From: Minisyncoccia bacterium | GTDB taxonomy: Bacteria; Patescibacteriota; Minisyncoccia; Phycocordibacterales; PALSA-1337 | Direction of reading: 5' to 3' | NCBI GenBank assembly: GCA_044234345.1 | Contig: JBIIIW010000003.1 | Coordinates: 1 to 46,367, forward strand | Length of the DNA: 46,367 bases | Part shown: one piece after another, positions 29,417 to 40,397 of the stretch | Layout of the letters: each line of letters begins with the position of its first letter | Position numbering within the stretch: the stretch's first letter is position 1 | Notes under the pieces: model-generated | Seen by the model: the letters and a program-made list of their open reading frames with translations, nothing else | The model's database searches: none | Told to the model about the DNA's origin: nothing | Program-made: the position numbers and the translations under genes

Positions 29417-29452
29417 AACCTATATATCATATTGCAATATGATATATAGGTT
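29417..29452. repeat. Perfect 36-bp palindrome
   Basis: AACCTATATATCATATTG|CAATATGATATATAGGTT with no spacer. Confidence 0.9.
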
Positions 29453-35661: not shown

Positions 35662-35713
35662 CTATATATATTTATAACACAGATTTTAAATAAGGGCAAA
35701 TTAGTTAACCTAG

Positions 35714-35784
35714 CTGCCGGACTTGGAATCGAACCAAAATTTTCGCTTTCAGAGAGCGACGTACTACCTTTATACGATCCGGCA
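35714..35784 (-). tRNA. tRNA-Gln (anticodon CTG)
   Basis: TGCCGGA/TCCGGCA acceptor stem, TCGCT-CTCTGAA-AGCGA anticodon arm, GGTTCGATTCC T arm; CCA not encoded. Confidence 0.96.
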
Positions 35785-35859: not shown

Positions 35860-36104
35860 CCATCTGAACACAAGATACTATTTCTTTAAGGGAAGAATGT
35901 GTATCTATAATCGAATTGAGGTAGAGGATACCGGATATTGGGTTCAGGAGTTAAAGATAGTAACAAATGATATGTATATTGCAACATAAATACTGTGGGT
36001 ATATAATATCTATGTGTGAGTACTGTAAAGCTTGACTTAGTTGTTGGTACTTCCAAAATAAAATGTCTACATAAGGTCCTGCCTCGGCAGGATTTTGTGT
36101 ATAT

Positions 36105-36131
36105 AAAAAGGGCTCTGCAAATGCAGAGCCC
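36105..36131 (-). terminator. Intrinsic terminator
   Basis: GGGCTCTGCA-TT-TGCAGAGCCC-TTTTT. Confidence 0.85.
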
Positions 36132-36142
36132 GTGTTTGGGAG

Positions 36143-36685
36143 CTACTTCTCCCCAACCCTATCCCAAGGGAAGAAGACAACCCTTTCCCGTCTCGAAACA
36201 TCGTCGATGAGCCTGCCGATATTCCTACCGGGATAGACAGTGTGGATAATCACGACCACCTCATGAGGATTGTAATTAAACTTGATACTTAGCGACACAG
36301 CCAAATGATTGGTCCTGGGTGCGGTGAAGAGATCCCCAACCATCAAGCCAGTTGCTCTTCCGTTAATCTTAAACGGGCTAAGATCGCGAGGATCATACCT
36401 GCCCAAATCGTCGGTGCTCGACCATCCGACAAACTGCTTCATGTCGAGGGTCGCCAACAAATTGTAAGTCCTATTGTGAATTGCGTTCTCGACCTCTCCG
36501 ACAATAAGTGAGGAAACCCTATTGTCGTTGAAGAGTTCACTTGCGCTACCCCAATCAAAGAAATTACCTGCAAGGCGCCTTCCTCTCCCTCGGAAACACG
36601 TAGTCATCAACCTCTGCTCGTTGTTACGAGACATGATGATAATAACCGGCCTTCCATCAATAAAACAATTGGTAAACACATTCAT
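36143..36685 (-). CDS. Orphan hypothetical protein
   Basis: 180-aa ORF bracketed by a consensus-like promoter and a terminator. Confidence 0.75.
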   Translation of the reverse strand: MNVFTNCFIDGRPVIIIMSRNNEQRLMTTCFRGRGRRLAGNFFDWGSASELFNDNRVSSLIVGEVENAIHNRTYNLLATLDMKQFVGWSSTDDLGRYDPRDLSPFKINGRATGLMVGDLFTAPRTNHLAVSLSIKFNYNPHEVVVIIHTVYPGRNIGRLIDDVSRRERVVFFPWDRVGEK

Positions 36686-36787: not shown

Positions 36788-36897
36788 TGATATAATAGAC
36801 ATATTGTTCCAAGCGTTGACGACCGGCTGTACTCACATCTTAATTTAGACATTATATTTGGAGCTAACACCCGTTCGTCAACATTTGGAGTAATATG
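36788..36897 (+). promoter_or_regulatory. murB promoter (TGa-TATAAT) and long hairpin leader covering the SD and AUG
   Basis: 36800-36830 pairs without gaps to 36867-36897: 25 Watson-Crick, 3 G-U, 3 mismatches. Confidence 0.7.
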
Positions 36898-37914
36898 ACA
36901 ATAAAAGAAAAAATATCTTTAAAAGAATTCACTACATTCAGGATTGGAGGTCCTGCACGGTATTTTTGTGTAGTTACAAATGAAGATGAGCTAATCGAAG
37001 CAATTGGTTTTTCTAAGAAGAACAAAATTCCTTTTTTCATACTAGGTGGAGGTTCAAATATTTTAGTATCAGATGCTGGGTTTAATGGAATTGTTATCAA
37101 GATGGAGATGAAGGGTAAGAAGTATGAGGAGAATGGTAATGAGGTTTATGCTACTGCATTTGCTGGAGAGAATTGGGATAATTTCGTATCTGAAACTGTA
37201 GATATGGGATTACATGGCATTGAGAACCTATCTTGGATTCCTGGAACTGTGGGTGGTGCTCCGGTTCAAAACATTGGTGCATATGGTAGTGAAGCTAAAG
37301 ATACAATACATACTGTACATGTACTTGATGTTGTTAAGGATGAATACATTGATCTAAAGAACGATGATTGTAAGTTTGGATACAGAGACAGTATCTTTAA
37401 GCAGGATCCAGGTAGATATGTAGTGCTATCTACAACATTTCTTCTTAAGAAGAAAGCTGGGTTGAATACAAACTACAAAGATCTTAAAGAATATTTTGAT
37501 TTCAAGAAGATTACTGAACCTACTCTTAAGCAAGTTCGTGAAGCTGTTATAGAGATACGCAAGAGAAAGCTTCCTGATATTAAGGAATATGGTACTGCTG
37601 GTTCATTCTTCAAGAATGTGGTTGTGTCTGCTCTTAAGGCTAAGGAGCTTACTGACATGTATCCTGAAATGATAGTTCACCCAGTAAATGACAAGAGGGT
37701 TAAGATCCCTACTGCATGGATATTGGATAACTTATGTGGTTTTAGAGGTGTAAAGAAAGGTAATGTAGGTACGTACAAGAACCAAGCTTTGGTGCTTGTA
37801 AACTTTGGTGATGCTACAGCGGCGGAGATAATTGGTTTGGCTCAAAAGATGGTGGATGGGGTGTATGAGAAGACTGGAATTGAAATTGAACCTGAGGTGG
37901 AATATGTGGTATAG
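36895..37914 (+). CDS. murB: UDP-N-acetylenolpyruvoylglucosamine reductase
   Basis: TTFRIGGPA, LGGGSNIL, IPGTVGGAPVQNIGAYG, FGYRDSIFK, AGSFFKN, EPEV. Confidence 0.97.
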   Translation: MTIKEKISLKEFTTFRIGGPARYFCVVTNEDELIEAIGFSKKNKIPFFILGGGSNILVSDAGFNGIVIKMEMKGKKYEENGNEVYATAFAGENWDNFVSETVDMGLHGIENLSWIPGTVGGAPVQNIGAYGSEAKDTIHTVHVLDVVKDEYIDLKNDDCKFGYRDSIFKQDPGRYVVLSTTFLLKKKAGLNTNYKDLKEYFDFKKITEPTLKQVREAVIEIRKRKLPDIKEYGTAGSFFKNVVVSALKAKELTDMYPEMIVHPVNDKRVKIPTAWILDNLCGFRGVKKGNVGTYKNQALVLVNFGDATAAEIIGLAQKMVDGVYEKTGIEIEPEVEYVV

Positions 37915-37925
37915 TAGACCGACAT

Positions 37926-40397
37926 ATGGCATTTTCAATCAAAAACATATTCGGAGATCCAAACAAAAAATTACTTAAGAAATACGAGCCTATAGTAGGC
38001 CTTGTAGCTTCATTTGAGCCTGCCATCTCTTCCCTATCAGACGAAGGTTTGAGAGCTAAGACTATTGAGTTTAAGGAGAGATTAGCTAAGGATGAGACTC
38101 TAGAGGGTATACTTCCTGAAGCATTTGCTGTAGTTCGTGAAGCATCTAAGCGCGTACTTGGACAAAGACACTTTGATGTACAGCTAATTGGAGGAGCGAT
38201 ACTCAATAGCGGTAGTATAGCTGAGATGCGTACAGGAGAAGGTAAGACTCTTGTTGCAACACTTCCTGCATATCTAAATGCATTAACTGGTAAGGGTGTA
38301 CATGTTATTACTGTAAACGACTACCTATCACGTCGTGATGCAGTTTGGATGGGACAGATATATAACTTCCTAGGACTTTCAACTGGAGTTATCAATCACG
38401 AAAGTTCATTTATATACGATCCATCACATACAGAAAAGGACAAAGAGAGAGATGAATTGGGATCATTTAAGGTGGTTCACGAGTATCTAAGACCGGTAAC
38501 TCGTAATGAGGCATACATGGCTGATATTACTTATGGTACTAACAATGAGTTTGGTTTCGACTATCTAAGAGACAATCTTGAATATGATTCTAATTCTCTA
38601 CGTCAGAGAGAGTGGAACTATGCAATTGTGGATGAGATTGACTCAATATTGATTGATGAAGCACGTACTCCCCTAATCATCTCTTCCCCTACTACAGATT
38701 CTGAGAATTTATATCAGATATTTGCATCTATGGTTAAAGACTTCAACAAGGACGAAGACTATACTGTAGACGAGAAACAGAGAAGTATTTCTCTAACTAA
38801 TAGCGGTATATCTAAGGCTGAAAAGAAGTTAGGTGTTGAGAATATATATACAGAGAAAGGTATTAAGTATGTTCATCATCTAGAGACTGCTGTTAAGGCC
38901 AAGGCATTGTTTAATATCAACACTGAGTATGTTATCAAAGACAACAGTATAGTTATCGTTGATACATTTACAGGTAGACTACAACCTGGACGTAGATGGT
39001 CAGATGGTCTACATCAGGCAGTTGAGGCGAAGGAAGGTGTATCAGTTCAGAAAGAAAGTAGAACATTTGCATCTATTACCTTCCAGAACTACTTCAGACT
39101 ATACAAGAAACTATCAGGTATGACAGGTACTGCAAGTACTTCTTCTGAGGAATTCTACAAAGTGTACGGTCTTGAGACTGTTACTGTTCCTACAAACAAA
39201 GGTATACAGAGAGTTGATCATAATGATTTAATATTCCAAACAGAAGTTGGTAAGTTTAAGGCTATTGCACGCAAGGTTAAGGAATTGAACAAGCTTGGAC
39301 AGCCTGTGCTAATTGGTACAGTATCTATTGAGAAGAATGAAGTGCTATCAGAATTCCTTAAGGCTGAAGGTGTACCTCATGAAGTACTTAATGCTAAGAA
39401 TCACGAGAGAGAGGGAGAGATTGTCGCTCAAGCTGGTAAGAAGGGTGCTGTAACCATAGCTACAAACATGGCTGGTCGTGGAGTGGATATTAAGCTTGGA
39501 GGTAATCCTGGTTCCCCTACCCTATACGAAGAAATTAAGTCTATTGGTGGACTATTTGTACTTGGTACAGAGAGACACGAAGCTCGTAGAATTGATAACC
39601 AGCTGAGAGGTAGATCTGGACGTCAGGGTGATCCTGGTGCAACACAGTTCTTCGTATCTCTAGAGGATTCTCTAATGAGAATATTTGCTTCTGATACTAT
39701 CAAGAACCTTATGGGTAAGCTTGGTGTTGCTGAAGATGAAGCTATCGAGAACAGTATGATTACTCGCTCACTTGAAGGAGCGCAGACTAAGATTGAGGGA
39801 TTCAACTTTGATTCTAGAAAGCATGTTCTTGAGTATGATGATATTCTAAATCACCAAAGAAAGACTGTTTATGAGAGACGTAGAAATATACTTGTTGGTA
39901 GTTTAGATGTTGTTAATGAAAAGATTAATGAGGTTGTTGGGGACAATGAAGAAGCAAAGAAGGTTATTGCAGAGAAGATCAACCTACTTGGTAAGGACCG
40001 TTTCCTAACTGTTGTTCGTCAGCTTATGCTACAAGCTATAGATATGTTCTGGGTAGAGCATCTAGAGGTTATGGACTATACTCGTTCAAGTGTGAACCTT
40101 AGAGCGTATGGACAGAGAGATCCTCTAGTTGAATACAAGAAGGAAGGATTGAGATTGTTTAAAGAAATGCAATTAGCTATTAACTCTCAGATACTCAACC
40201 TTCTTCCTCATGTTGGTGGTGGTGTTGTAACTCAAGAAGCAGTACAACTTAAGGAAGTTCATGAGCAAGCTCAGGTTATAGGTGATGGTGATGGTAGTAA
40301 CAAGCAAGTGGAAGCACCTAAGAAGGCTGAAGTGGGTAGAAATGATGCTTGTCCTTGTGGATCTGGTAAGAAGTACAAGAAGTGTCATGGACAATAG
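37926..40397 (+). CDS. secA: Preprotein translocase ATPase SecA
   Basis: MRTGEGKT, DEIDSILIDEARTPLIIS, ATNMAGRG.DI, QLRGRSGRQGDPG, SEC-C GRND.CPCGSGKKYKKCH. Confidence 0.99.
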   Translation: MAFSIKNIFGDPNKKLLKKYEPIVGLVASFEPAISSLSDEGLRAKTIEFKERLAKDETLEGILPEAFAVVREASKRVLGQRHFDVQLIGGAILNSGSIAEMRTGEGKTLVATLPAYLNALTGKGVHVITVNDYLSRRDAVWMGQIYNFLGLSTGVINHESSFIYDPSHTEKDKERDELGSFKVVHEYLRPVTRNEAYMADITYGTNNEFGFDYLRDNLEYDSNSLRQREWNYAIVDEIDSILIDEARTPLIISSPTTDSENLYQIFASMVKDFNKDEDYTVDEKQRSISLTNSGISKAEKKLGVENIYTEKGIKYVHHLETAVKAKALFNINTEYVIKDNSIVIVDTFTGRLQPGRRWSDGLHQAVEAKEGVSVQKESRTFASITFQNYFRLYKKLSGMTGTASTSSEEFYKVYGLETVTVPTNKGIQRVDHNDLIFQTEVGKFKAIARKVKELNKLGQPVLIGTVSIEKNEVLSEFLKAEGVPHEVLNAKNHEREGEIVAQAGKKGAVTIATNMAGRGVDIKLGGNPGSPTLYEEIKSIGGLFVLGTERHEARRIDNQLRGRSGRQGDPGATQFFVSLEDSLMRIFASDTIKNLMGKLGVAEDEAIENSMITRSLEGAQTKIEGFNFDSRKHVLEYDDILNHQRKTVYERRRNILVGSLDVVNEKINEVVGDNEEAKKVIAEKINLLGKDRFLTVVRQLMLQAIDMFWVEHLEVMDYTRSSVNLRAYGQRDPLVEYKKEGLRLFKEMQLAINSQILNLLPHVGGGVVTQEAVQLKEVHEQAQVIGDGDGSNKQVEAPKKAEVGRNDACPCGSGKKYKKCHGQ

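Follow-up and report, generated by a model that had tools for sequence, protein, structure and literature searches.

Two co-evolving small RNAs at the head of murB-secA in a Minisyncoccia bacterium: a candidate antisense RNA-leader module

Several described modes of RNA-based control bear on the locus treated here. In Escherichia coli, the small RNA (sRNA) IstR-1 blocks an upstream standby site in the structured tisB leader and induces cleavage by RNase III, and secA is controlled by SecM through peptide-mediated ribosome stalling. The plasmid pairs CopA/CopT of R1, RNAI/RNAII of ColE1, Sok/hok and the countertranscripts of pT181 are cis-encoded, on opposite strands of the same DNA. CpxQ and SroC are sRNAs derived from 3' untranslated regions (UTRs), and thermometers of the ROSE and fourU types are weak hairpins that mask the Shine-Dalgarno (SD) sequence and melt at physiological temperature. 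We analyzed a 46,367-nucleotide stretch of contig JBIIIW010000003.1 of a Minisyncoccia bacterium (the window, to which coordinates refer unless a contig is named), part of a 633-kb assembly in 36 contigs, in which a long hairpin adjoins the start codon of murB. The hairpin belongs to a conserved RNA, here called RNA2, with the closing stem P1, and the same window encodes a partner small RNA, RNA1. The two RNAs fold, are complementary at two sites, co-evolve and co-occur, and RNA2 stands at the start of murB; we propose, with a probability of roughly 0.55, that they constitute a new antisense sRNA/leader module controlling murB-secA. Among the papers listed by full-text searches on structured or non-coding RNAs of the candidate phyla radiation (CPR)/Patescibacteria and on SRP (signal recognition particle) in CPR, no regulatory RNA of this kind was found.

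RNA2 is composed of the following parts.

36788-36796, forward strand: extended -10 box TGaTATAAT of RNA2, read from the sequence; in relatives, TGnTATAAT or a similar -10 box keeps its spacing from the foot of the stem
36800-36897, forward strand: RNA2; the conserved part is ~36803-36894, ~92 nt
36803-36826, forward strand: 5' arm of P1; 17 of the 17 P1 pairs show compensatory changes in 96 sequences
36829-36837, forward strand: RNA2 site A, near-invariant GUACUCACA, the 5' strand of the apical helix P2, complementary to the 5' end of RNA1
36845-36870, forward strand: RNA2 site B, the apical loop and the invariant UUUGGAG (36857-36863), complementary to the tail of RNA1
36871-36894, forward strand: 3' arm of P1, containing a genome-specific SD-like GGAG (36887-36890)

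The hairpin had been flagged in an initial annotation as a leader that locks the SD and start codon of murB, and its geometry was reproduced exactly: positions 36800-36830 pair without gaps to 36867-36897 through 25 Watson-Crick and 3 G-U pairs with 3 mismatches. When the whole window was scanned for 31-nt arms that pair without gaps at 28 or more positions around a loop of 20-60 nt, this was the only hit; a repeat search with a seed of 9 did not list it because the longest perfect run is only 8 nt. The motifs named with it (TGaTATAAT, TTTGGAG, GGAG and the ATG) are all present. RNA2 would begin just after the conserved extended -10 box and ends at the murB start codon in this genome, the ATG (36895-36897) lying directly against P1; the outermost three pairs of the hairpin, CAU/AUG, are peculiar to this genome. 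The apical part consists of P2 (CUCaCA/UGGAG) and a loop.

The predicted minimum free energy of the 104-nt stretch as RNA is -37.1 kcal/mol (z -6.61); 200 shuffles that preserve dinucleotides give -17.2 +/- 3.0, and none of them is as good. In the single sequence the antisense strand folds equally well (-38.8 kcal/mol, z -6.83), and energy alone therefore cannot choose the strand. The forward strand is fixed by comparative data: the covariance model of RNA2 scores 108.8 bits on the forward strand of the window and 37.7 bits on the reverse, and several stem positions are mostly G-U or U-G across relatives, columns 8/119 among them with U-G in 54 of 96 sequences. The earlier claim of selection at the RNA level thus stands on the comparative side, while the folding energy of this one sequence does not decide it. 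That symmetrical folding is also what a DNA-level palindrome (an operator, a repeat element or a miniature inverted-repeat transposable element, MITE) would predict, an explanation to which we attach almost no weight: covariation preserves pairing and not sequence, many of the G-U pairs would be A-C on the other strand, the covariance model favours the forward strand by 71 bits, and RNA2 is single-copy in the 633-kb genome by both BLAST and covariance model and essentially one per genome across the order. Multiple genomic copies, which the initial annotation had named as a sign of a MITE, are accordingly not seen.

Among 24 genomes of the same genus, the DNA over the hairpin is conserved upstream of murB in 23; the 24th (G017) has only a 34-nt piece of it, placed elsewhere. 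In three of them (G022, G024, G010) the hairpin DNA is 88-91% identical to that of this genome, against only 68-73% for the MurB protein. The covariance model was built from an alignment of 28 sequences, whose consensus has 24 pairs; compensatory changes occur in 11 of these. It finds RNA2 in 106 of the 151 genomes sampled from the order, whose families number more than 118; such covariance-model searches over more than 40 genomes used strict filters, and "not found" in them does not equal "absent". In 96 sequences, 95.6% of cells are paired and 21 of the 24 pairs are changed on both sides, so the covariation named as a check for murB upstream regions of relatives was borne out, with an alignment that was fitted to the model and is to that extent somewhat favourable to the result. 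The covariation score of 0.493 compares with 0.185 for shuffled alignments (0 of 500 reach it) and with at most 0.116 when partners are slid; the relatives are not independent, so that the significance of this and the other shuffling tests is overstated to an unknown degree. Outside the order, RNA2 was found in 1 of 149 other-order genomes in a phylum-wide draw of 150 relatives and in 15 of 145 in a class-wide draw.

The invariant parts of RNA2 are apical: G(Y)ACUCACA, a loop of variable length (13-25 nt) with AGACAUU or variants, and UUGGAG(C). No Rfam family accounts for them. In Rfam 15, only a tRNA-Gln reaches the gathering threshold anywhere in the window, which agrees with the earlier statement that the element is undescribed; eight RNA1-RNA2 loci of other genera gave no Rfam match, and Rfam scans of RNA1 and RNA2 by E-value returned chance matches only, far below threshold. 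Inspection of the alignments revealed no conserved small open reading frame (ORF) in either RNA.

RNA1 was recognized in other families and in more distant genus members as a second conserved element ~100 nt upstream of RNA2. It opens with GUGAGUG behind a -10 box, continues with a hairpin that varies and an unpaired A-rich stretch whose last letters are AAUGUCU, and closes with a long terminator-like hairpin. A motif search located it in the genome studied here inside the window, at ~36014-36100, 700 nt upstream of RNA2.

35979-36007, forward strand: promoter-like site of RNA1, TTGCAA, 17 nt, TATAAT; 10 of 12 positions match in a consensus scan
36014-36100, forward strand: RNA1; its 5' end is GUGAGUAC, followed by a hairpin, an unpaired tail rich in A and U with AAUGUCUA at its end, and a long terminator hairpin
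36013-36024, forward strand: RNA1 site A', pairing with RNA2 36829-36839
36041-36070, forward strand: RNA1 site B', pairing with RNA2 36845-36870
36069-36100, forward strand: terminator-like hairpin of RNA1 with a U-rich tail, a predicted fold with a 14-bp stem

The 5' end of RNA1 is inferred from the promoter position; a -10 box 6-7 nt ahead of GUGAGU recurs in its relatives. The RNA1 covariance model (R2) scores 62.2 bits at C15:36013-36111, and the predicted fold in the window comprises the 5' hairpin, the free tail and the 14-bp terminator stem. In 50 sequences, 96% of the cells of this stem are paired, 8 of its 13 pairs are compensatory and many are G-U. Full-length RNA1 matches (E <= 1.2e-4) occur in 104 of the 151 order genomes. 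With a promoter-like site and a terminator hairpin of its own, as expected of a trans-acting sRNA, RNA1 is predicted to be transcribed independently. Two genomes carry additional copies: G070 has two full-length RNA1 copies (C3:71393-71479 and C1:53282-53367), and G066 has RNA1 and RNA2 twice each (C1 and C31) with identical scores, possibly an assembly duplicate.

The conserved motifs of the two RNAs are complementary to each other: GUGAGUG(C) of RNA1 to (G)CACUCAC of RNA2, and AAUGUCU of RNA1 to AGACAUU of RNA2. In the window, the predicted duplex is -15.1 kcal/mol at site A (RNA2 36829-36839 with RNA1 36013-36024) and -21.3 kcal/mol at site B (RNA2 36845-36870 with RNA1 36041-36070). Together the two sites span the entire apical domain of RNA2 and end at the top of P1. 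The conserved unpaired nucleotides of RNA2, which might have marked a riboswitch-type ligand pocket, are accounted for by this pairing. The initial annotation had listed a trans RNA among several possible triggers, and it is this suggestion that gains direct comparative support from the presence of RNA1 in the same window.

The complementarity is maintained as the sequences change. All-against-all column covariation on MAFFT alignments was too noisy, owing to U/G-rich columns and indels, and was replaced by an energy permutation and by counts at anchored positions. Over 63 genomes (three loci were dropped where the regular-expression anchor failed), cognate duplexes average -20.7 kcal/mol and non-cognate ones -17.1, and 0 of 10000 permutations are as low; the genome's own RNA1 is best or tied-best in duplex energy for 10 of the 63 RNA2s and in the top tenth for 23. 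At the eight positions of the site B core, 328 of 360 cells pair in the 48 genomes present in both alignments (0.911; random reassignment of partners among genomes gives 0.850 +/- 0.007, with 0 of 2000 trials as high). Four of these positions show double changes, with A-U 37/U-A 7, G-C 40/U-A 2/A-U 1, A-U 42/G-C 2 and C-G 44/U-A 1. In site A, otherwise near-invariant, a pair is kept in 56 of 58 genomes (C-G 47, U-G 6, U-A 3), the 2 apparent mismatches being rows with a wrongly placed regular-expression anchor. Complementary runs of 12-14 nt are lineage-specific and differ between genomes (G089, G113, G032, G078). In other orders of the class, 6 of 6 loci examined have an upstream RNA1-like match, at nhmmer E 1.5e-8 to 4.3e-6, and the changes in the two RNAs correspond at sites A and B alike; murB lies directly downstream in 3 of the 6 and secA in 1. 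A seventh such locus (G274) has murB directly downstream and no RNA1 match with the nhmmer profile. The complementarity is held by co-evolution, as would be expected of a trans antisense sRNA and its target.

The two RNAs also travel together: both were found in 101 of the 151 order genomes and neither in 42, while 5 yielded RNA2 without RNA1 and 3 the reverse. Their arrangement varies. In 83 loci RNA1 precedes RNA2 on the same strand by no more than 600 nt (median gap 39 nt), and the sites follow in the order a..b..a'..b', which in cis would be that of an H-type pseudoknot. One could accordingly picture RNA1 and RNA2 as a single pseudoknotted, riboswitch-like cis leader of ~230 nt that reads through the "terminator" of RNA1 and senses a metabolite such as a cell-wall precursor. 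We consider this very improbable, given that RNA1 is upstream and divergent in 5 loci, on another contig than RNA2 in 5, and on the same contig 640 nt to 51 kb away in 9, arrangements which imply that the two are separate genes (transcription units). In the window they are 700 nt apart with an opposite-strand gene between them (ORF 36143-36685), a -10 box precedes RNA2 within the gap, and mutual pairing leaves no conserved unpaired pocket. The intervening ORF has 180 codons on the reverse strand and no Pfam match, and is followed by a terminator on the same strand (36110-36131); both were inserted between RNA1 and RNA2 in this lineage. The stretch between the two RNAs is of equal length but strongly diverged in one relative's contig.

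The genes that follow RNA2 in the window are these.

36895-37914, forward strand: murB, UDP-N-acetylenolpyruvoylglucosamine reductase; Pfam FAD_binding_4 6.1e-25, MurB_C 1.6e-20
37926-40397, forward strand: secA; Pfam SecA_DEAD 1.8e-122 and further SecA domains

The Pfam matches confirm the gene that had been named as murB, and MurB N-termini in relatives align from residue 1. Since secA follows 11 nt after murB, it is probably on the same transcript. The neighbours of RNA2 were surveyed in 88 order genomes, with one locus retrieved for each. RNA2 is directly followed by murB on the same strand in 58; measured from where the RNA2 match ends, the extrapolated murB start has a median offset of 5 nt and lies within 20 nt in 41 loci, within 5 nt in 30 and beyond 100 nt in 7. 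In 24 genomes secA follows without murB, at 335-961 nt except in G135, where the distance is -4 and RNA2 stands directly before secA. The remaining 6 have neither gene within the locus, 2 of them being cut by contig ends. The upstream neighbour in many families is a Wzy_C/TPR protein, and the ancestral order seems to have been Wzy_C-TPR gene, RNA1, RNA2, (murB), secA.

Two features of the spacer regions were noted in passing. Loci lacking murB often have a small Lys/Arg-rich ORF between RNA2 and secA, of 40-100 codons, consisting nearly entirely of Lys, Arg, Ala and Thr repeats with a histone-H1-like composition (L059, L064, L071, L126, L133, L143, L153 and others). A ~130-nt insert with its own long hairpin (arms of the GGAAGTC...GCTTCC type) separates RNA2 from murB, or precedes murB in the absence of RNA2. 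Five genomes have similar versions, in L034, L035, L037, L044 and L046 (G017, G024, G022, G020 and G018, respectively); the insert coincides with contig breaks in G017 and G018, and may be a small mobile or repeated element.

The position of P1 at the murB start was the basis of the original model, in which an autonomous hairpin locks the SD and AUG of murB and is opened by temperature, a helicase, a protein or RNase III without any partner RNA. The 3' arm in this genome does contain GGAG and the AUG, the stem is very stable, and the start codon lies against P1 in most genomes. As a conserved function, the lock is not supported by comparison: of the 23 genus sequences compared, only this genome and G011 have GGAG in the 3' arm, most others having GGCG, and the distance from the stem to the ATG varies within the genus from 0 to ~160 nt. 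The model also leaves unexplained the invariant apical motifs, which covary with RNA1. A thermometer of the ROSE or fourU type, as that family is generally defined, would have to be much weaker than this stem of -36 to -37 kcal/mol, and the SD is present in only 2 of the 23 genus sequences. A proposed alternative pairing of the TTCCAA strand with the apical TTTGGAG fared no better, with 74.6% of cells paired against 73.2% when shuffled and 2 of the 7 positions unpaired in over half of the sequences. We give the autonomous lock little credence. P1 is not an intrinsic terminator either: a terminator scan listed none after P1 in the window, where the stem runs into the murB coding sequence, which continues instead, and a U-run after P1 is found in only 2 of the 28 murB-less loci.

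For the antisense module that we favour, the following mechanism is proposed. RNA2 transcription would start at an extended -10 promoter of its own and here run on without a break into murB-secA, with the RNA2 apical domain (P2 and the loop) serving as the docking site for the separately transcribed RNA1. In free RNA1, the 5' GUGAGUAC should be paired with GUACUU in its own hairpin, and in free RNA2, CUCACA should be paired with UGGAG in P2. Pairing may nucleate where the RNA1 tail, which is free, meets the open RNA2 loop, after which strand exchange would open both small helices and form the two intermolecular sites: site B, of ~25 bp, between the RNA1 tail and the RNA2 loop plus the UUGGAG strand, and site A, of ~9 bp, between the RNA1 5' end and the freed GUACUCACA strand. 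P1 would meanwhile hold the murB initiation region inside, or right against, a very stable helix. Binding of RNA1 is expected to alter murB-secA output in one direction or the other (on or off). The pairing stops at the top of P1 without invading it, so P1 is left intact and an extra step would be needed to affect murB. Two options are plausible. RNase III, for which an ORF with the corresponding signature (rnc) is present in the genome, might cut the intermolecular duplex of at least 20 bp, or P1 itself, whereby the P1 arms would be uncoupled or decay would begin. Alternatively, RNA1 might mask the invariant SD-like UUGGAG and so block a ribosome standby site, by analogy with IstR-1/tisB; this option presumes a start codon without an SD of its own in most genomes.

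Several points weigh against such a module. In 28 of the 88 genomes murB is not directly after RNA2, and leader status does not hold everywhere; a strict scan of these 28 loci places a separate hairpin and U-run terminator no more than 85 nt beyond RNA2 in 17, and in 2 others P1 is itself followed directly by a U-run. RNA2 looks free-standing there, which fits a role beyond that of a murB leader. G033 and G039 have murB placed elsewhere without RNA2, and neither RNA was found in 42 of the 151 genomes, several of them 100% complete. As RNA1 pairing does not invade P1, it alone would not free the murB start. RNAcofold returns two separate folds (-66.8 = -36.0 + -30.8 kcal/mol), a nested co-folding without intermolecular pairs that reflects the pseudoknot or kissing type of the complex, whose stability is accordingly estimated from the separate duplex energies only. 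The promoters, ends and processing of both RNAs are likewise predictions.

Much of this would be accommodated if RNA1 and RNA2 were a free-standing bipartite RNA, or an sRNA with its sponge, unrelated to murB, which would merely share the RNA2 promoter in compact genomes. The RNA2 fold and the RNA1 pairing persist where murB is absent, with RNA2's own terminator in those 17 loci and the U-run in 2; the RNAs are gained and lost together; each RNA's conserved motifs are accounted for by its partner, which leaves no further conserved single-stranded site as a target; and the pairing falls short of the murB initiation region. The genomic position of RNA2 is the main difficulty for this explanation. 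RNA2 stands right before murB in genomes of different genera, mostly a few nucleotides from the start codon; further orders of the class show the same arrangement, and one genome has RNA2 immediately ahead of secA. Since these genomes rearrange, such a recurrent adjacency is hard to keep by chance. The failure to find the pair in those 42 genomes also speaks against it, and indicates that the module is not an essential housekeeping RNA. A free-standing pair unrelated to murB is in our judgment rather unlikely. RNA2 looks like a leader in about two thirds of the genomes and a free-standing sRNA in at least a fifth: it is directly upstream of murB in 58 of 88, and at least 17 of the 28 others have their own terminator.

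As a single-copy hairpin RNA of ~95 nt adjoining secA, in a genome where SRP RNA, 6S RNA and transfer-messenger RNA (tmRNA) were all not detected, RNA2 could conceivably be a diverged housekeeping RNA. The small SRP RNA (RF00169) was found in 0 of 41 genomes at E <= 1 (controls 13 of 14), RF01854 gave none, and the SRP protein domain PF02978 was not found in this genome; 6S RNA (RF00013) had no match in it; and for tmRNA there were only sub-threshold, tRNA-like matches to RF00023 elsewhere, and none with ARAGORN in the 36 contigs. All three were rejected as identities of RNA2. Its variable apical loop is not a tetraloop, the alignment shows no GNRA tetraloop or SRP domain IV loops as these motifs are usually defined, and no Ffh M domain or SRP-type GTPase was found as a binder. 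RNA2 lacks a T-arm and a tag frame, 45 of the 151 genomes gave no match to it, and its matches in Rfam E-value scans are all chance ones of the microRNA type. A pattern search for an SmpB motif, whose definition may be wrong, came back empty and is given no weight. We therefore consider a housekeeping identity scarcely credible. RNase P RNA was located in this genome, at C23:23827-24132.

The SRP searches gave results of their own. The Ffh M domain (PF02978) was found in 0 of 121 genomes of the phylum including this one (controls 13-14 of 14); the SRP54 GTPase domain (PF00448) had no match in 35 of 41 genomes and weak partial P-loop matches in 6; and no reading frame in this genome combines the GKTT, DTAGR and TKxDG motifs. 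Either the lineage as a whole has truly lost its SRP parts, or the first-look filter fails to see them. Elsewhere in the window, the tRNA-Gln (CUG; 35713-35784, reverse strand) is the sole match of Rfam or ARAGORN, and positions 29417-29452 form a perfect spacerless palindrome of 18+18 nt (AACCTATATATCATATTG and its complement).

Eight genomes of the genus (L083-L090: G017, G012, G013, G008, G018, G015, G006 and G020) contain a second, partial RNA2 apical core of 25-39 nt, 88-100% identical, flanked on one side by the thrS terminator and on the other by the 3' end of a convergently oriented gene for a PKD-domain surface protein. Read from the PKD strand, this stretch is antisense to RNA2, and its predicted duplex with the genome's own RNA2 is -41 to -55 kcal/mol in the six of these eight genomes for which it was computed. 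A broader and decidedly speculative extension, which we hold to be doubtful, is an RNA-only circuit for envelope biogenesis in CPR, in which RNA2 would be the receiver at the head of murB-secA and RNA1 one of several inputs acting by two-site strand exchange, a second input in some species being the 3' UTR of the mRNA for an abundant secreted surface protein. If true, secretory or cell-wall demand would be reported directly to SecA and MurB synthesis, in a lineage without SRP components detected by the searches used here and without a SecM-type leader peptide.

The putative module fronts two core envelope genes, those for a peptidoglycan precursor enzyme and for the secretion motor. Its comparative support for intermolecular pairing is unusually clean, with both RNAs in two thirds of the order genomes sampled and in other orders of the class. 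It thus offers a testable case of trans-RNA control in organisms so far beyond manipulation, and the RNAs are short enough for in vitro work and heterologous reporters.

Among the known systems, IstR-1/tisB offers one parallel: in both cases a trans-encoded sRNA pairs, here by prediction, at a good distance upstream of a start codon hidden in structure; here the sRNA-binding site includes UUGGAG as a candidate standby element, and an RNase III ORF is present. The two are not related by sequence or family, and the target here is the apical domain of a 28-bp hairpin, contacted at two sites in permuted order, in a system that extends across the order and beyond and in which RNA2 also stands alone. 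As with SecM, a dedicated element upstream of secA may limit initiation through mRNA structure, but no leader ORF exists here and the first regulated gene would usually be murB. The antisense stretch of the eight genomes resembles CpxQ and SroC in its place at the 3' end of a gene for a PKD-domain surface protein, before the terminator, and is complementary to RNA2 site B; it differs from them in that its other strand is an RNA2-like decoy after the thrS terminator, and the genome of this window has no copy. With the plasmid antisense pairs, finally, RNA1 and RNA2 share two folded RNAs with complementary hairpins, a predicted loop/tail nucleation followed by strand exchange, and a leader as the target. 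Unlike those pairs they are chromosomal and lineage-wide and match no countertranscript RNA family of Rfam, and, being encoded on the same strand at different places or unlinked, they must keep by co-evolution a complementarity that is automatic in the plasmid pairs. Among architectures for antisense control, it is uncommon for two hairpins encoded by one strand to pair in this two-site, permuted way.

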